A DNA stretch of 64,000 bases from a virus. Lineage: Duplodnaviria > Caudoviricetes. The position numbers were made by a program, and so were the translations under genes. Each line of letters begins with the position of its first letter. Position 1 is the first letter of the stretch. The stretch lies in IMG/VR virus record IMGVR_UViG_2706795344_000001, positions 1 through 64,000 of that record, one strand, 5' to 3'. The notes under the pieces are model-generated. The model was not told the origin of the DNA. It saw only the letters and a program-made list of their open reading frames with translations, and made no database searches. Shown piece by piece: positions 5,754-11,923 of the stretch.

Positions 5754-5997
5754 ACATCACGTCACAAGCATTCTGAGCTGTAACACGACATCCATTTCGA
5801 ACCTTGAAGTAAGTTTTAAATCCCATGGCATTTGTAATCCAGTAGCCACTTGCTGCTTCAACAATATTGAAGTTGCGAGGATTATCAACGAATACTCGTA
5901 CACCTTCGATATATGCAATACCACCATTTTGGATAACTTCCATAATCTCATTTTCAGATGAACTTTTAAGCTTCTTAGTTTTAGTTTGTGATGACAT
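5716..5997 (-). CDS. Hypothetical protein
   Basis: 93-aa ORF with a GGAG RBS. Confidence 0.7.
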   Translation of the reverse strand: MSSQTKTKKLKSSSENEIMEVIQNGGIAYIEGVRVFVDNPRNFNIVEAASGYWITNAMGFKTYFKVRNGCRVTAQNACDVMFGKGRYKVNSRV

Positions 5998-6034
5998 ATT
6001 ACAACTCCAGAATTAAATAAATTTAAAAATTAAA

Positions 6035-6454
6035 TTAGGCTTTCTTACGTGTGCTGGTTCGTTTCGTTTTAGTTTCTACTGGTTTTTCTTCGCCAGCTCC
6101 TTCGTCATCACCGCTATCGTTTCCTGCATCTCCATCATCTGGTTCTTTTGAATCCCCAGCTCCATCTCCAACACTGTCACTCTCTGCTCCAGAGTCTGTG
6201 GCACTTGACCCTGAATCTTCTTTACTGCTGCTCTCGTCAGTGGCTTCAGAACTTCCAGTGCTAATGCTTGTACTAGTGGTTTCAACCTTATCTCCTTCAT
6301 CTTTCTTCATTGTTACAGTAATATTACCAAAGTGTACAACACACTGTGAGTACACAGGTACATATCCTTCTAGTGTAGCCTCATGGATAGCTTTCACGAT
6401 ACTCTGAACAGTTTGACCTGAAACTGGCACACTAATTACTAAAGGGTTATTCAT
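6035..6454 (-). CDS. Hypothetical protein with an acidic low-complexity tail (start revised to MNNPLV)
   Basis: AAGGAG RBS before ATG 6454; promoter at 6486-6514. Confidence 0.7.
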   Translation of the reverse strand: MNNPLVISVPVSGQTVQSIVKAIHEATLEGYVPVYSQCVVHFGNITVTMKKDEGDKVETTSTSISTGSSEATDESSSKEDSGSSATDSGAESDSVGDGAGDSKEPDDGDAGNDSGDDEGAGEEKPVETKTKRTSTRKKA

Positions 6455-7087: not shown

Positions 7088-7132
7088 ACTTTACAATAAA
7101 GTTGTTGACAAATCTGGATTTTGTGATATACT
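7088..7132 (+). promoter_or_regulatory. Promoter of the tRNA/ncRNA cluster
   Basis: ACTTTACAATAAA, then TTGACA-16 nt-TATACT with TG extension. Confidence 0.7.
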
Positions 7133-7433: not shown

Positions 7434-7539
7434 AACATACTTCGGCAATTTCGCTACCGAAGGAGTTGGGATTTGCTGGTATAGACTCTTAGGCAAACCA
7501 GTATTTATTTAAATTTTTAATTTAATTATTTGTGAGGTA

Positions 7540-7779
7540 TTGATGTTTACGAATGTTTGTTCAGACAAAATTGCTGAAAAGGTCGGAAGCGTATTCGACA
7601 AGCAATGTAAAACAATTGAGAAAGGTATTGAAGATATCAAAGCCAATCGAGAAAAACGCCAGATTTTGATTGCTGAGCATAAAGCTGGTTTAGCTAAGCT
7701 CGAAGCTGAAGTGGATAAAGATAATAAAAATATCGATATCCTAAATACAAAATTAAGTACACTTCGAACTTTGGTTTAA
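7540..7779 (+). CDS. Small coiled-coil protein within the tRNA cluster
   Basis: GAGGT RBS; heptad pattern. Confidence 0.7.
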   Translation: MMFTNVCSDKIAEKVGSVFDKQCKTIEKGIEDIKANREKRQILIAEHKAGLAKLEAEVDKDNKNIDILNTKLSTLRTLV

Positions 7780-7850
7780 GTGGTTAATTGGTGACGTGTT
7801 GGATGTTTAAAATAATGGAAGTTATTAGAAGTATTTAACGTCACCTTGTT

Positions 7851-7927
7851 ACGCCATTAGCTCAGATGGATAGAGCATCTGCCTTCTAAGTAGATGGTCA
7901 CGGGTTCGAATCCTGTATGGCGTACCA
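7851..7927 (+). tRNA. tRNA-Arg(TCT)
   Basis: Canonical cloverleaf, CTTCTAA loop, CCA. Confidence 0.95.
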
Positions 7928-7931
7928 ATTT

Positions 7932-8059
7932 TAAATCTATTTTAAATTTGATTCGTGTTGTGTCCCACGTTTGCTGGTACATTGAGACTCCTAAATCACT
8001 ATAAGGGACTCTCGGAAGATTAGTGACTTCTAACAGGGATTAAATTTAAAATAGATTTA
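7932..8059 (+). ncRNA. Putative structured RNA: 23-bp closing stem, three inner hairpins
   Basis: 7932-7954 pairs with 8037-8059; loop TCACTA is complementary to loop TAGTGA. Confidence 0.55.
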
Positions 8060-8060
8060 C

Positions 8061-8135
8061 GGGTTGTTAGCTGAGATGAATTAGCGCTAGCTTGAAAAGC
8101 TTGAGAGGTTGGATTGTTACCAACACTTCCCACCA
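8061..8135 (+). tRNA. tRNA-Phe(GAA), atypical
   Basis: TTGAAAA loop; T-loop ATTGTTA; two T-T mismatches in the acceptor; ACCA end. Confidence 0.7.
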
Positions 8136-8143
8136 AATATTAT

Positions 8144-8220
8144 AGCGAGTCGTGATGCTGGTTTCACAGTAGGTCTCATAAGCCTATGTACAAGAGTTCG
8201 ATTCTCTTACTTCGCTACCA
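8144..8220 (+). tRNA. tRNA-Met/Ile2(CAT); bulged acceptor
   Basis: CTCATAA loop, TTCGATT T-loop, ACCA. Confidence 0.8.
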
Positions 8221-8225
8221 AATAT

Positions 8226-8311
8226 GTATGTGTGACCCGAATTGGTAAGGGAGCGGACTGTAACTCCGTTGTCAAAAGCAATTGTAGGTTCAAGTCCTAC
8301 CACATACACCA
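8226..8311 (+). tRNA. tRNA-Tyr(GTA)
   Basis: Perfect acceptor GTATGTG/CACATAC, CTGTAAC loop, long variable arm. Confidence 0.93.
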
Positions 8312-8317
8312 AACAAT

Positions 8318-8392
8318 GGTCGATTAGCTCAGCGGTAGAGCAGTAGCCCGATAAGCTATTGGTCGCTGGTTCAAATCCAGCATCGACTACCA
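8318..8392 (+). tRNA. tRNA-Ile(GAT)
   Basis: Cloverleaf; loop CCGATAA (C33). Confidence 0.9.
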
Positions 8393-8397
8393 AATAA

Positions 8398-8549
8398 TCT
8401 CCCGATTGGGTTCGATTCCCGATCGTAACACGCTTTGAAAGTTTGAATATTCATGATAAGTTCAAATGAGTAGATGGGTTGTGTAAGTTGAAGTTAAGAG
8501 CGAGGTGGCTTGTTTCTTCAATGAGAAGGTTCGAATCCTTTGGAGACCA
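8398..8549 (+). ncRNA. tRNA-like RNA A (~152 nt, two T-loop hairpins, CCA end)
   Basis: TCTCC/GGAGA terminal stem plus CCA; T-arm GAAGG-TTCGAAT-CCTTT; second T-loop hairpin at 8403-8425. Confidence 0.6.
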
Positions 8550-8556
8550 ATTTTAT

Positions 8557-8635
8557 TGCCACGAATCCGAGCAAGGTGCATGGACCAGACTGTTAATCTG
8601 AGGTTAGATGGGTTCGATTCCCATAGTGGTAGCCA
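8557..8635 (+). tRNA. tRNA-Asn(GTT)
   Basis: CTGTTAA loop, T-arm, GCCA. Confidence 0.88.
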
Positions 8636-8689
8636 AACAAGTAGTGTGTACTTCTTCCCTCCATTTATGGAGTTCTAGTCGGCACACAG

Positions 8690-8960
8690 GCAGTGAGTAT
8701 AGATATTTGAGATAAACATTGGTTCTCTCATTTCATCGTTTCGAAAGATTCTTACTGTAACAGTTTTGATGCAAAGTGGTTTTCTTTAAAACAGGCTTAG
8801 AAAGATACATTGGTAGCAGAAACAGAGATTAAATTCTCAGGACTTTCAGCCATGTGCCTTGTTAGTTGTTGTCTGTTGGTTGATGTCAGGTATACGTGAT
8901 AGCTGAGGCTTGATAGTATCATCAACGGCTTTGAGGGATAGTGATCATAATACTCATTGC
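8690..8960 (+). ncRNA. Putative ~270-nt structured RNA
   Basis: 11-bp closing stem GCAGTGAGTAT/ATACTCATTGC with several inner hairpins; no ORF of 60 aa or more. Confidence 0.45.
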
Positions 8961-8979
8961 TTACAAAAACCTGAGATTA

Positions 8980-9056
8980 CGGTGTGTTTCGAGAAAGGGT
9001 AATCGACTGCCTTTGGAGCGCAGAATATGTAGGTTCGAGTCCTACCGCACCGACCA
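8980..9056 (+). tRNA. tRNA-Pro(TGG)
   Basis: CGGTGTG/CGCACCG acceptor, TTTGGAG loop. Confidence 0.9.
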
Positions 9057-9062
9057 AATTTA

Positions 9063-9224
9063 GAGACGTGGGCTGTGAACTCAAGAGAGATGAAAGCAAA
9101 AGTAGTCTTGCGAGTAGAGTAGCAGTGCAGTGGAAAGGTAATCGCCATGAAGGATTAACTACTCTGGTGAAAATACATGTTAAGTAGCCAGCAAGATTTG
9201 TGTTGTACAGGCGATAAGCGTCTC
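9063..9224 (+). ncRNA. Putative ~160-nt nested-stem RNA
   Basis: Nested stems GAGACGT/GCGTCTC, AGTCTTGC/GCAAGATT, TAGAGTAG/CTACTCTG. Confidence 0.5.
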
Positions 9225-9261
9225 AATGAGAGTGTAAGTTTTGATACAACACACCTAATAT

Positions 9262-9337
9262 GACTCATTAGCTCAATCGGGAGAGCGCCACACTGTCACT
9301 GTGGAGGTAAGGAGATCGAAACTCCTATGGGTCGCCA
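9262..9337 (+). tRNA. tRNA-Asp(GTC)
   Basis: CTGTCAC loop; T-loop ATCGAAA; GCCA. Confidence 0.9.
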
Positions 9338-9341
9338 AACG

Positions 9342-9602
9342 TTCGAAGCGGATTGACGTAAATGAACAGGTAGCTCCTGTGACTGAGAAGTCTATGATAT
9401 GGTAAGCAAGGCGCTTCCCTTCGAAAATAGTGAGTGGTGTACAACACGAGCGAACTGGTGTAAGGACTACCCAGACATTGCATAGAATTTGTGATGTGAA
9501 AGTCCTGACAGAATTTTAAGAATAGGTTAAAGACTTCCAAACACTCTGTTGAGATGTTAGAGAAGCAAACGGAGCTGAGTACCTATCTCACATAATAGCT
9601 CC
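9342..9602 (+). ncRNA. Putative multi-hairpin RNA
   Basis: Stems TTCGAAG/CTTCGAA, AGGACT/AGTCCT, ACATTGCA/TGTGATGT, GGAGCT/AGCTCC. Confidence 0.35.
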
Positions 9603-9607
9603 CTTTT

Positions 9608-9681
9608 GCTGGTATCGTATAGTGGTATTATGCTGGTCTTGTAATCCAGTCACGGTGGTTCGATTCCTCCTACCAGCACCA
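9608..9681 (+). tRNA. tRNA-Thr(TGT)
   Basis: GCTGGTA/TACCAGC acceptor, CTTGTAA loop. Confidence 0.9.
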
Positions 9682-9709
9682 AGATTTGTGGTAACTTTAG
9701 AGGTTTGTA

Positions 9710-10009
9710 ATGCAACATTTAGCACATGGTAATTTTATTTTAGTTGAGGATACAGAAAATGAATCTGTGACTGATGGTGGTATTGTCTTAGCCAAAGGAG
9801 CTAAAGAGCAAGAGTCCACGAAACGTTCAAAGATTATCTCTATCTCTGAGCAACTATTGCAACGATTTGAAAGTATGAATCATAAGTTTCCATTGAAAGA
9901 AGGTGATTTTATTTATCGTCGTTATTTCTCTGGAACTATGGTTATGACAAAAGACGATAAAACGTATTACGCATTACATGTTGATGATGTATTGTCTAAA
10001 GAGATTTAG
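9710..10009 (+). CDS. groES: Co-chaperonin, GroES/Cpn10-like
   Basis: ILVE...TDGGIVL mobile loop, LKEGD, YYALHVDDVL; 99 aa; GAGGT RBS. Confidence 0.85.
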   Translation: MQHLAHGNFILVEDTENESVTDGGIVLAKGAKEQESTKRSKIISISEQLLQRFESMNHKFPLKEGDFIYRRYFSGTMVMTKDDKTYYALHVDDVLSKEI

Positions 10010-10079
10010 GGTTGACCGCTGGGCGGTGACGAGGCTCCAAACCTTGTCTTGCTACGTTCGATTCGTAGTCGATCTGCCA
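10009..10079 (+). tRNA. tRNA-Trp(CCA), reduced D-arm
   Basis: GGGTTGA/TCGATCT acceptor, CTCCAAA loop, T-arm, GCCA; 71 nt. Confidence 0.75.
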
Positions 10080-10200
10080 TTTAAGCGTTGCATCGTTTAA
10101 AAGGTTTTCATAAGTTTTGACCTCAATAAAGCTTAGTGATTACGCCACATTGGGCTGGTTAGATTGAAATCTAATAAATCCATGTCATGTTGGCTGTAAT

Positions 10201-10276
10201 TGGGACGTAGTGTAGTTGGTTAGCACATGAGACTTTGACTCTCATAGATTCAGTTCGAACCTGAACGTCCCTTCCA
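10201..10276 (+). tRNA. tRNA-Gln(TTG)
   Basis: CTTTGAC loop, cloverleaf, CCA. Confidence 0.9.
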
Positions 10277-10280
10277 TTTT

Positions 10281-10366
10281 AAAGATATGTAATCTTGCTT
10301 CCGTAGAAGGTACTGACAATCTCACCTGATGTGTGCCGAGGTAAGTGGTGAGGATTACATATCTTT
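10281..10366 (+). ncRNA. Putative 86-nt structured RNA
   Basis: 15-bp closing stem AAAGATATGTAATCT/GGATTACATATCTTT; inner CTCACC/GGTGAG. Confidence 0.45.
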
Positions 10367-10371
10367 GTGAT

Positions 10372-10448
10372 GGTGATCATGGTGTAATTGGCTAGCACCG
10401 CGATTTGTGATGTCGTTAGTCTGAGTTCGAGCCTCAGTGATCACACCA
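10372..10448 (+). tRNA. tRNA-His(GTG)
   Basis: Encoded G-1, TTGTGAT loop, A73. Confidence 0.9.
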
Positions 10449-10450
10449 AT

Positions 10451-10524
10451 GCGTGATTGGTATAATGGTATTATGTCTGGCTTCCACCCAGAAGACGAGA
10501 GTTCGATTCTCTCATCCAGCGCCA
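10451..10524 (+). tRNA. tRNA-Gly(TCC); two acceptor mismatches
   Basis: CTTCCAC loop; GCGTGAT/ATCCAGC acceptor. Confidence 0.82.
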
Positions 10525-10530
10525 AATTCT

Positions 10531-10605
10531 GTTCCATTCGACTAGCGGTTAGGTCGCTTCCCTTTCAAGGAAGTAGCACGAGTTCAAATCTCGTATGGAA
10601 TACCA
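10531..10605 (+). tRNA. tRNA-Glu(TTC)
   Basis: CTTTCAA loop, cloverleaf, ACCA. Confidence 0.93.
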
Positions 10606-10613
10606 AATTCTAC

Positions 10614-10762
10614 GGTTCATCCTCCGACAATTCTTTTAAGTTGTGCATGACTTACCTGAGTTGGCTGGTGCTGAGAGGATAAATAGGAATGCTGCTTTAA
10701 GTAAAATGCAAATAGCTTAAAGTAAGGTCTTAGTTGGGTTCGATTCCCAAGTGAACTCCCCA
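10614..10762 (+). ncRNA. tRNA-like RNA B (149 nt; acceptor, T-arm and CCA with an expanded interior)
   Basis: GGTTCAT/GTGAACT 7-bp stem, TTGGG-TTCGATT-CCCAA T-arm, CCCCA tail. Confidence 0.65.
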
Positions 10763-10922
10763 AATTATTAAGAGAAGGTAATTCGCTAATATCGACGGGT
10801 ATTTGATGCTGTATTGATAGGCGCGTTATGAGTTCGACCCTCACAGGCAGGTTGGTTGCTATGCTGAAATTCTAGATTTCTCTACAGTGGCATTAATAGT
10901 GAGTTACCCTCTCTTAATAATT
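10763..10922 (+). ncRNA. Putative structured RNA: ~26-bp closing stem with an internal T-loop hairpin
   Basis: AATTATTAAGAGAAGGTAATTCGCTA pairs with TAGTGAGTTACCCTCTCTTAATAATT; TGAG-TTCGACC-CTCA inside. Confidence 0.55.
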
Positions 10923-10932
10923 TGTTTTAGGA

Positions 10933-11007
10933 ATACCATAATCTAAAGGGACGAAGTGCTGGCTTGCAAACCCAGAATAGTGAGTTCGAGTCTCACATGG
11001 TATTCCA
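10933..11007 (+). tRNA. tRNA-Cys(GCA)
   Basis: TTGCAAA loop, U73, CCA. Confidence 0.85.
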
Positions 11008-11021
11008 AAGCAAATAATAAT

Positions 11022-11099
11022 GTACAGGTGACGGGAACTGGCATACCTATCACGCTTAGAACGTGGTGCTTGTGGGTTCGAAGCCCACCCTGTATACCA
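11022..11099 (+). tRNA. tRNA-Leu(TAG), short variable loop
   Basis: CTTAGAA loop, A73, CCA. Confidence 0.88.
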
Positions 11100-11113
11100 A
11101 TTTAGAGGTTCCT

Positions 11114-11344
11114 ATGTTAGAAGATATCTTAGCTGAAGGTGTTGTTAGTGTTGATTTCTTTAGCCTTGGCAACTTGATGTTAAAGACATCTGAGCGTAGC
11201 TACTGCCTCAATCTTCATAAAAAATTCTTAATGCGTTTTGTTTTAAATGACTCACTTGCCTTAACAGATGAGTGGTTTGATAAAACAGAGGTATTAAGTA
11301 AATCAGATTTTGACAAGTTAATTGAGGTTATCGAGTGTATATAA
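11114..11344 (+). CDS. Hypothetical protein (start revised to MLEDIL)
   Basis: GAGGT RBS just after tRNA-Leu. Confidence 0.65.
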   Translation: MLEDILAEGVVSVDFFSLGNLMLKTSERSYCLNLHKKFLMRFVLNDSLALTDEWFDKTEVLSKSDFDKLIEVIECI

Positions 11345-11634
11345 TTCATTTCGCCCATCAAGTAGATGGGCACAAACGGTTTATCGACCCTATCTTTATG
11401 GAAGCATTAGAACCTAATGATTTCTACGAGATGAGAGATTGGTTTACACGTATCACAAATTCACTCTTTGGATATAGTGAAGAGAAGGCTTCTAAAACAC
11501 TTCTTGACATGATGGCCCAAGAGAACATTCAAATTGGCAAATGGATTAGTATTACATCACCAGATGATGTATCGACATTAGTCTACTGTATTCGCCATGT
11601 CCCAGAAAAAGCTTCATTCCCTAGAGGTGCATAA
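11335..11634 (+). CDS. Hypothetical protein
   Basis: GAGGT RBS, GTG start. Confidence 0.65.
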   Translation: MYIIHFAHQVDGHKRFIDPIFMEALEPNDFYEMRDWFTRITNSLFGYSEEKASKTLLDMMAQENIQIGKWISITSPDDVSTLVYCIRHVPEKASFPRGA

Positions 11635-11889: not shown

Positions 11890-11899
11890 TTTTACCTCA

Positions 11900-11923
11900 A
11901 GCCCGTCCAAGGGCTTTCTTTTT
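11900..11923 (+). terminator. Intrinsic terminator
   Basis: AGCCC-GTCCAA-GGGCT followed by a T-tract. Confidence 0.7.

Follow-up and report, generated by a model that had tools for sequence, protein, structure and literature searches.

A candidate tRNA-scaffolded small RNA in the tRNA array of Acinetobacter phages of the genus Saclayvirus, with the design of T4 species 1 RNA

The tRNA array and its genomic setting

The DNA analysed here (the window) comprises the first 64,000 nucleotides (nt) of the virus record IMGVR_UViG_2706795344_000001 (Duplodnaviria; Caudoviricetes), a genome of 104,906 base pairs (bp) whose nearest relatives are Acinetobacter baumannii myophages of the genus Saclayvirus. 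Within its array of transfer RNA (tRNA) genes lies an element of 149 nt (10614-10762, + strand) that is probably the gene for a non-decoding small RNA built on a tRNA scaffold. Judging from the sequence comparisons presented below, it belongs to a real, unannotated family of structured tRNA-scaffold RNAs with the design of the species 1 RNA of phage T4 (rnaC).

The tRNA array (7850-11100, +) contains 13 tRNA genes called by ARAGORN, to which Rfam added Phe-, Met- and Asn-like genes. A GroES-like gene also lies in it, and the tRNAs alternate with several structured segments of non-tRNA type that are closed by stems. A sequence scan placed a promoter-like site (7105-7132) and a terminator-like hairpin (11899-11916) on the two sides of the array, and it detected neither a strong promoter-like site nor a terminator at the element itself. 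The element is located on the tRNA strand, between tRNA-Glu and another structured segment. The flanking tRNAs have their own processing signals, and elsewhere in the array the tRNAs are spaced by a few bases. In the records of related phages the locus is either blank or annotated with short 'hypothetical proteins' on differing strands.

Outside the window, the phage encodes an Rnl2-type RNA ligase of 367 amino acids (G000:83924-85027, +) that contains the domains RNA_ligase (PF09414) and T4_Rnl2_C (PF18043). No CCA-adding enzyme, RtcB or Ro60/TROVE domain was found in the 104.9-kb phage genome.

Anatomy of the element

Element positions are counted from window position 10614 (position 1). The 5' strand of the acceptor stem, GGUUCAU (10614-10620, positions 1-7), pairs with the 3' strand GUGAACU (10751-10757, positions 138-144) over 7 bp that include G1.U144 and U7.G138; phage P1 has C7-G138 in place of the latter. 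An RNase P cleavage site is predicted immediately 5' of G10614. The T-arm (10734-10750, positions 121-137) is formed by a 5-bp UUGGG/CCCAA stem with the canonical loop UUCGAUU; it directly abuts the 3' strand of the acceptor, and the variable region is reduced to one base. The element ends with C73 (tRNA numbering) followed by CCC and A (10758-10762, positions 145-149), i.e., a C-run rather than an encoded CCA. Among the array tRNAs, those inspected at the 3' end (Arg, CAT tRNA, Ile, Asn, His, Glu, Cys and Leu) have N73-CCA-A. In the relatives the tail reads CCCCCA, CCCCU, CCCCG or CUCCCG, so that its last base varies (A/U/G) and the C-run is present in every copy of the two lineages described here, with one U interrupting it in Herod. 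A previous sequence-only reading of this DNA had proposed the acceptor GGTTCAT/GTGAACT, a perfect T-arm and the CCCCA tail, and the three of them are indeed present, the T-arm as TTGGG-TTCGATT-CCCAA.

The region that corresponds to the D-stem is occupied by helix P2, whose 5' strand (10621-10627, positions 8-13 followed by the unpaired A14) pairs with 10672-10678 (positions 59-65), leaving A61 as a bulge. Positions 10-13 in tRNA numbering form a D-stem-like helix that is extended by the pairs 8-65 and 9-64, and A14 is retained. P2 shows the changes C9-G64 to U-A in Liucustia and G13.U59 to A-U in P1. At this place the sequence-only reading had drawn an ATCCTC/GAGGAT domain; the part that coincides with 8-13/59-65 is supported by the change of C9-G64, and the rest overlaps acceptor positions 6-7.

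Two arms stand in the positions of the D-loop and the anticodon arm. Arm 1 is a 36-nt hairpin in the D-loop position (10628-10663) with a covariation-supported fold, made up of P3 (15-20/45-50), an internal loop UUU/CCU, P4 (24-29/36-41) and the apical loop GUGCAU (10643-10648), which includes the motif UGCAU (10644-10648, positions 31-35). It is followed by P5, the GCUGGUGC mini-hairpin with a UGGU loop (10664-10671), identical in all the Saclayvirus and AM24-type copies; GCUGGUGC remains unchanged in both lineages although the surrounding stems differ. The UGGU loop could supply the equivalent of G18-G19, in other words, the GG of a D-loop, whose docking on the T-loop builds the elbow. Arm 2 (10684-10732, 49 nt) takes the anticodon-arm position and contains P6 (71-75/115-119), an internal loop AUGC/AGG and P7, the 10-bp helix (80-89/102-111) that the sequence-only reading had correctly described. 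Its 12-nt apical loop AAAAUGCAAAUA (10703-10714; written AAAATGCAAATA in that reading) carries the motif AUGCA (10706-10710, positions 93-97), proposed below as the kissing partner of UGCAU.

Neither a 7-nt anticodon loop nor a 5-bp stem with a 7-nt loop was found anywhere in the arms. Since two long arms replace the D and anticodon arms, the element should be unable to decode. It would thus keep the features recognised by RNase P, by T-loop modification enzymes and by elbow or acceptor readers, and it would lack the decoding features used on the ribosome.

Conservation and covariation within Saclayvirus

The element was detected by BLAST in about 15 Saclayvirus records with 93-100% identity. 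The fold, which comprises 47 pairs in eight helices, was tested within the genus on an alignment of seven copies (A2). Over the 47 pairs, 99.7% of the cells are paired, three pairs (9-64, 28-37 and 84-107) are changed on both sides, and five other pairs show one-sided changes compatible with wobble; the single broken cell is the U84.U107 of P1. Slid controls reached at most 54% of paired cells and showed almost no double changes. Eleven of the 14 variable columns fall in pairs, and pairing is kept in all of them except in that cell of P1. The acceptor and T-arm pairs are 100% paired in the seven copies, and the fold contains seven G.U pairs that exist on the + strand, where the tRNAs are encoded, and not on the other.

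In the arms, the pair U28-A37 of P4 becomes C-G in Liucustia, a compensatory change, U84-A107 of P7 is found as G.U in Liucustia and as U.U in P1, and arm 2 has wobble-compatible changes at positions 73, 75 and 102. UGCAU and AUGCA are invariant in the seven copies, and the sole loop change, A90G in Aci05, is outside AUGCA. Two ways of folding arm 1 can be compared on these data. The hairpin ACAAT-TCTTTTAA-GTTGT of the sequence-only reading can be drawn, but U28C in Liucustia breaks its pairing; in the alternative helix 24-29/36-41, obtained by minimum-free-energy folding, the same U28C is compensated by A37G and pairing is kept. The string CTTTTAA, likened by that reading to the anticodon loop of a tRNA-Lys, spans the end of P3, the internal loop and the start of P4, and it is not a 7-nt loop because the compensatory change supports the 24-29/36-41 helix.

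A second lineage in AM24-type phages

A covariance model of the element (R1) found a 127-nt homologue in phage YMC13/03/R2096 with 33 bits and an E-value of about 1e-6 (the E-values of this model and of the models R2 and R3 are rough). This homologue is unannotated and lies between tRNA-Gly and tRNA-Pro; according to BLAST, its sequence is also present in P577, Ab15, Herod, AM24 and Bestia. The parts follow the same order as in the element: a 7-bp acceptor, a short P2, a hairpin interrupted by a 3x3 internal loop, the identical GCUGGUGC, the closing strand of P2, a linker, a 9-bp arm, the T-arm with the same loop, the 3' strand of the acceptor and the C-run tail. The AM24 type lacks P6, and its arm loops, GUUCGAAA and AUUCGAAG, are wholly different.

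In a joint alignment of the two lineages, fitted to the model, 21 of the 47 pairs are changed on both sides and 97.8% of the cells are paired, and slid controls gave at most two such pairs. The double-sided changes are distributed over the acceptor (4 of its 7 pairs), P2 (3), P3 (4), P4 (3), P7 (5) and the T-stem (2), the T-loop being identical. The proposal of a tRNA-scaffolded RNA made by the sequence-only reading is supported in what concerns the scaffold, i.e., a genuine acceptor/T-arm top half joined to non-tRNA arms in a conserved and discrete module.

We have also looked for a third lineage. Searches of IMG/VR and of metagenomes with the exact T-arm/acceptor pattern, and then with the pattern GCTGGTGC-gap-T-loop-CCC(C), returned the known members only. 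The models R1 and R3, run on the arrays of Acibel004, D22, vB_AciJM_313, phiPsa397, PaP1 and Alf5, gave no new member; the remaining matches were ordinary tRNAs of about 20 bits or 97-nt long-arm tRNA-like sequences. A generic script that looked for orphan T-arms and acceptors whose 5' strand lies far away gave too much noise to be of use. The 97-nt sequences come from large metagenome contigs (L067:5717-5813, L052:704-800 and L060:3148-3244) and combine GCUGGUGC with a long extra arm and the ending ...CCCCCCA; they were rejected as members of the family, and by eye they resemble long-arm, possibly selenocysteine-type tRNAs.

Some other unannotated sequences were observed in the arrays of these phages. 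YMC13/03/R2096 contains two tRNA-like sequences of 91 and 71 nt (L003:5624-5714 and L003:5716-5786) between tRNA-Thr and tRNA-Met, with good T-arms, CCA ends and aberrant interiors, that score 13.7 and 24.1 bits with R1, respectively. The 20-tRNA array of vB_AciJM_313 is interrupted by a gap of about 985 nt with no annotated gene (L105:5155-6139), labelled in the record as 'putative replication origin'; at least one tRNA-like sequence in it lacks an annotation (5965-6044; R3 score, 19.3 bits).

A discrete and mobile cassette

When the copies are aligned with their flanks, the conserved block extends exactly from G1 to the C-run and appears in three upstream and two downstream contexts. The upstream neighbour is tRNA-Glu in the window, tRNA-His in P1, Liucustia and KIMZ-24, and an unrelated spacer in Aci05, CRR8 and Aci01-1. 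A metagenome contig (run X17) joins 10602 to 10760 and so is missing precisely this module, with a junction that is ambiguous over 7 nt. We read this junction as the CCAAATT found after both tRNA-Glu and the element. The location of the junction at a short 'CCA + spacer' repeat suggests that cassettes of the array are exchanged by recombination. In four of the public runs, which are stored as contigs and contain small shares of the window, we observed the presence of the element, two known variants and one contig without the module, and neither BLAST nor the covariance model gave a match to the element at the array locus of Saclayvirus D22. In the tRNA arrays of Acinetobacter myophages the element behaves, on these comparisons, as a discrete cassette subject to gain, loss and movement; such gain and loss fits an accessory role.

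Comparison with tRNAs and other RNAs with tRNA-like parts

The element shares with a canonical tRNA (RF00005) the 7-bp acceptor beginning with G1, the 5-bp T-stem with its UUCGAUU loop abutting the acceptor, an A14 after the D-stem-like helix, a GG-containing loop, and the location in the same array and strand. It differs in its length of 149 nt, in the pairing of positions 8-9, in the hairpin inserted at the D-loop position, in the lack of a 7-nt anticodon loop, in the 1-nt variable region and in having CCCC in place of an encoded CCA. Rfam, at gathering thresholds and with E-values up to 10 on 7500-11600, gave no family at the element, RF00005 included. ARAGORN found nothing there by default, with introns allowed, with thresholds of 80-90% or in transfer-messenger RNA (tmRNA) mode. 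When one or both inserted hairpins were excised in silico, no tRNA was called at default settings, and the 80% threshold only yielded incoherent calls.

The top half has nevertheless a recognisable resemblance. A Felix-O1-type tRNA-Met that shares the T-loop (GGUUCAG.../...CUGAACC) reaches 22.8 bits with R1, and BLAST searches with the element also match the 3' halves of phage tRNA-Met genes. This likeness, limited to the acceptor and the T-arm, may be a hint of ancestry. A tRNA-Met(CAT) of this kind, called by ARAGORN and unannotated in the record, is found in Escherichia phage Alf5 (L104:9332-9408); its acceptor GGUUCAG/CUGAACC and T-arm are closely similar to the top half of the element.

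In tmRNA and in YrlA, a bacterial Y-RNA-like RNA, a non-tRNA structure is likewise attached to a tRNA-like module (acceptor/T-arm or T-loop). Unlike tmRNA, the element has no tmRNA call, tag reading frame or G3.U70 (the pair 3-142 is U-A). In YrlA the ends of the RNA form the Ro-binding stem and the tRNA-like part is internal, whereas the ends of the element form the acceptor stem; there is no Rfam match to the element either, and the phage genome lacks a TROVE/Ro60 gene. A functional analogy exists with the engineered 'tRNA scaffold' RNAs and with the small RNAs derived from tRNA-operon spacers, such as the E. coli 3'ETS-leuZ sponge, in which a payload is placed in, or released from, a tRNA context and the tRNA-processing enzymes set its ends and give it stability. 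Those RNAs are artificial or consist of unstructured base-pairing fragments, whereas the payload of the element is a pair of covarying arms in a natural mobile cassette. The idea of a mimic of a repeat of the clustered regularly interspaced short palindromic repeats (CRISPR) was dropped; only the first six bases, GTTCAT, presumably resemble the A. baumannii I-F repeat.

The element has the design of T4 species 1 RNA

The closest counterpart in design is rnaC of T4, a stable RNA of 139 nt located inside the T4 tRNA array on the tRNA strand (NC_000866, 70908-71046; L008:2909-3047, -). It has been described as a late, stable RNA of unknown role (PMC3014915, PMC9697503), co-transcribed with the T4 tRNAs (PMC2330249), and its role is still listed as unknown in reviews and recent papers (PMC3014915, PMC9697503, PMC12685909). 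Our literature search, which did not cover the older subscription papers on species 1, found no description of the element, of the function of rnaC or of a complementarity between rnaC loops.

Both RNAs have about 140 nt and are encoded among phage tRNA genes, in the same orientation as these. In both, a terminal 7-bp acceptor-like stem is followed directly by a canonical T-arm, a long arm stands beside the 5' strand, an A-rich linker leads to a second arm with a 10-bp helix, the anticodon loop is missing, and each of the two arms has an apical loop complementary to that of the other. Unlike the element, rnaC has a tandem U.U in the acceptor stem and a much longer arm 1, and it lacks the GCUGGUGC hairpin and the C-run tail (it ends in ...CGUA). 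Moreover, rnaC is a stable RNA by experiment, whereas the element is predicted to be one.

The fold of rnaC was modelled with T4, IME523, KM16, KaAlpha and NM4.3 (model R2, alignment A5), and 19 of its 46 pairs covary in these five diverse members. With default filters, R2 scores T4 rnaC itself at 161 bits and finds nothing at the element when it is run on the window; with the filters off, the only match there is a local one to the T-arm (5.8 bits), and ordinary tRNAs score higher. R1, in turn, does not match rnaC in T4. Because the models match in neither direction, we regard the element as an analogue of rnaC and not as a member of its family. No convincing relative of rnaC was found with R2 in RB49, RB43, 44RR2.8t, Acinetobacter phage 133 or KVP40; a match in RB43 (13.5 bits) was rejected, being away from the ARAGORN tRNA genes and having a fold unlike that of rnaC.

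The loops of the two arms are complementary

UGCAU in the loop of arm 1 (31-35) and AUGCA in the loop of arm 2 (93-97) can form five contiguous Watson-Crick pairs, with a shuffle p of about 0.007. In rnaC, the tip of arm 1 (UUGACG) and the 6-nt loop of arm 2 (CGUCAA) are exact complements (p about 0.005), and both sequences are invariant in the five members, which belong to Tequatro-, Kanagawa-, Moon- and Karamvirus, while the stems covary. The AM24 type has UUCGAA in both arm loops (p about 0.003). On the sequence evidence, a real contact between the loops of arm 1 and arm 2 is slightly more probable than not. The pairing might take place either within one molecule, giving a closed ring, or between two molecules, giving a dimer, and the unequal lengths of the arms in T4 and in the AM24 type would favour the dimer in those two. 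The TGCAA string that the sequence-only reading had compared with an Ala or Cys anticodon is actually in the loop of arm 2; its anticodon-like role is not sustained, and it is explained more simply as a part of the loop-loop pairing partner.

The array contains a second tRNA-like RNA of about 152 nt, named RNA A (8396-8549, +), in which UCUCC pairs with the GGAGA that precedes CCA, with a folding z-score of -2.2. It has a canonical T-arm and, in the D-arm position, a second T-loop hairpin CGAUUGGG-UUCGAUU-CCCGAUCG. Its two T-loops are complementary only through the palindrome UCGA, the same effect that is seen in the AM24 type.

Other structured segments of the array

Between tRNA-Arg and the Phe-like tRNA there is a segment of 133 nt (7928-8060, +) whose closing stem runs for about 23 bp without interruption. 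Its folding z-score of -6.4 is the strongest in the array, and it matches no Rfam family. Another segment, of about 165 nt, is located directly 3' of the element (10763-10932, +) and presents a long closing stem AUUAUUAAGAGA.../...UCUCUUAAUAAU and an internal GAGUUCGACCCUC T-loop-like hairpin (z = -3.2). This segment travels with the element in most Saclayviruses, with the exception of P1 and Liucustia.

Proposed function and alternative explanations

The proposal that 10614-10762 (+) is the gene for a non-decoding, tRNA-scaffolded small RNA can be developed as follows. Transcription from the promoter-like site near 7105 would cover the element together with the rest of the array. A cut by RNase P at G10614 and a stall of the 3' trimming at the C-run would leave a stable RNA of about 145-149 nt, which would accumulate like T4 species 1 RNA. 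The apical loops would pair, UGCAU with AUGCA, to give a ring within one molecule or a dimer. The half formed by the acceptor, the T-arm and the elbow might then engage a tRNA-binding factor of the host or the phage without entering translation, and the locked arms would provide stability or a second binding surface. Candidate partners would be enzymes that process or modify tRNAs, or a defence protein directed at them. This last part of the proposal, the action as a tRNA mimic that engages a tRNA-binding factor, is speculative; we consider it the most likely action of the RNA, though rather doubtful taken by itself.

A more general version is that unrelated myophage arrays share a class of devices, made up of a tRNA top half and two expanded arms locked as a ring or a dimer by kissing loops, which would act as non-decodable mimics against a tRNA-directed factor of the host. 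The phages involved would be the T4-like phages of enterobacteria and the Saclayvirus and AM24-like phages of Acinetobacter, and the factor could be, e.g., a nuclease of a defence system or a modifying enzyme that recognises the elbow or the acceptor end. From the sequences at hand, this generalisation seems unlikely.

Several observations weigh against these proposals. The folding energy of the element is no better than that of shuffled sequences (z = -0.74), and with an unremarkable energy the case for the element rests on comparison. Within the genus this comparison is thin, since the three double-sided changes all come from a single genome, Liucustia, and the joint alignment of the two lineages was fitted to a model that favours the structure. 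The element is dispensable in some close relatives. The resemblance to rnaC may be convergent, given that no homology is detectable. With respect to the loops, their complementarity was noticed post hoc in the element and only afterwards tested in rnaC and the AM24 type, and neither loop varies within a lineage. In the AM24 type the palindrome UUCGAA coincides with the T-loop consensus, which makes this case ambiguous, and an intramolecular kiss is geometrically uncertain in T4 and the AM24 type owing to their unequal arm lengths.

The most serious alternative, although improbable, is that the element works only in cis as a processing or insulating spacer, i.e., as a landmark for RNase P or RNase E that keeps its neighbours from misfolding and whose excised piece has no function. 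It would agree with the alternation of tRNAs and stem-closed segments in the array, with the lack of a strong promoter-like site or terminator of its own and with its absence from some relatives, but the neighbouring tRNAs carry their own processing signals and sit only a few bases apart elsewhere. Neither would a spacer need an invariant GCUGGUGC, invariant complementary loops and arms that covary in two lineages, and the identity of the module is kept in different flanks. A mimic that is aminoacylated or tagged with CCA appears quite improbable. In it, the tail would be trimmed to C73-CC and the CCA-adding enzyme of the host would add an A, because the phage has no such enzyme, and the RNA would be charged for a tmRNA-like or amino-acid-donor role apart from decoding, or would be marked for turnover with CCACCA. 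The intact acceptor/T-arm minihelix, the G1-G2 at the 5' end and the C73 followed by CC are what such a mimic would show; however, no identity element can be recognised, since both G3.U70 and a G-1 facing C73 are missing (C or U occupies position -1), CCA is not encoded as it is in the array tRNAs checked, and there is no mRNA-like frame or tmRNA call.

A similarly poor candidate, and to us a slightly weaker one, is a decaying or recently disrupted tRNA gene with insertions in the D and anticodon loops. The top half is like that of real tRNAs, as the 22.8 bits of the Felix-O1-type tRNA-Met with R1 and the BLAST matches to tRNA-Met 3' halves indicate, but the check for an excised intron or a disrupted tRNA advanced by the sequence-only reading was negative: ARAGORN called no tRNA with introns, with lowered thresholds or, by default, after removing the hairpins, and RF00005 gave none at E<=10. 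Furthermore, the arms that would have been inserted covary and are kept in two lineages, and the variation avoids breaking pairs. The sequence-only reading had suggested, as a speculation, a decoy that shows Lys-like CUUUUAA and Ala/Cys-like UGCAA anticodon loops to PrrC-type nucleases, an idea that now looks very improbable. Both strings are present, Lys and Ala are absent among the tRNAs called in the window, and the Rnl2-type ligase indicates that RNA damage and repair matter to this phage. Nevertheless, the absence of Lys and Ala is not specific, because at least Val is missing too; CUUUUAA lies across P3, the internal loop and P4, and the hairpin needed to expose it, with a loop of 8 nt, is disrupted in Liucustia. 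The loops stressed by that reading differ completely in the AM24 type, where neither string is present, the very observation that this reading had named as its refutation, and YMC13/03/R2096, Herod and Bestia carry the homologue together with an ordinary tRNA-Lys(UUU). A decoy role through the tRNA top half is possible. Finally, we give hardly any credit to a feature that acts only on the DNA, such as a recombination cassette or the target of a homing endonuclease. The presence or absence of the element with the 7-nt ambiguous junction (CCAAATT after both tRNA-Glu and the element) and the HNH endonuclease genes found in the arrays of relatives would be in line with it, but the compensatory and G.U-compatible changes are strand-specific signatures of RNA, and the shared junction accounts for the mobility of the cassette and not for its internal conservation.

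Significance

The tRNA arrays of phages are now seen as counter-measures to the attack of the host on tRNAs, and annotation hardly ever covers the non-tRNA RNAs that they contain. Since the 1970s T4 species 1 RNA has remained without an assigned function, and the element would constitute a second, independent family with the design of rnaC, present in clinically relevant A. baumannii phages. The close relatives with and without the element offer a natural comparison for genetics, and the complementary loops of the arms are a specific and cheap structural hypothesis that can be tested both in T4 and in Acinetobacter phages. If the device class were true, it would supply the first structural and functional rationale for T4 species 1 RNA. 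Even if the reading as a mimic were false, the annotation would still be corrected and a new family of structured RNAs defined; if these RNAs are true tRNA mimics that engage host factors, the counter-defence of phages would be extended to tRNA-scaffolded RNAs.

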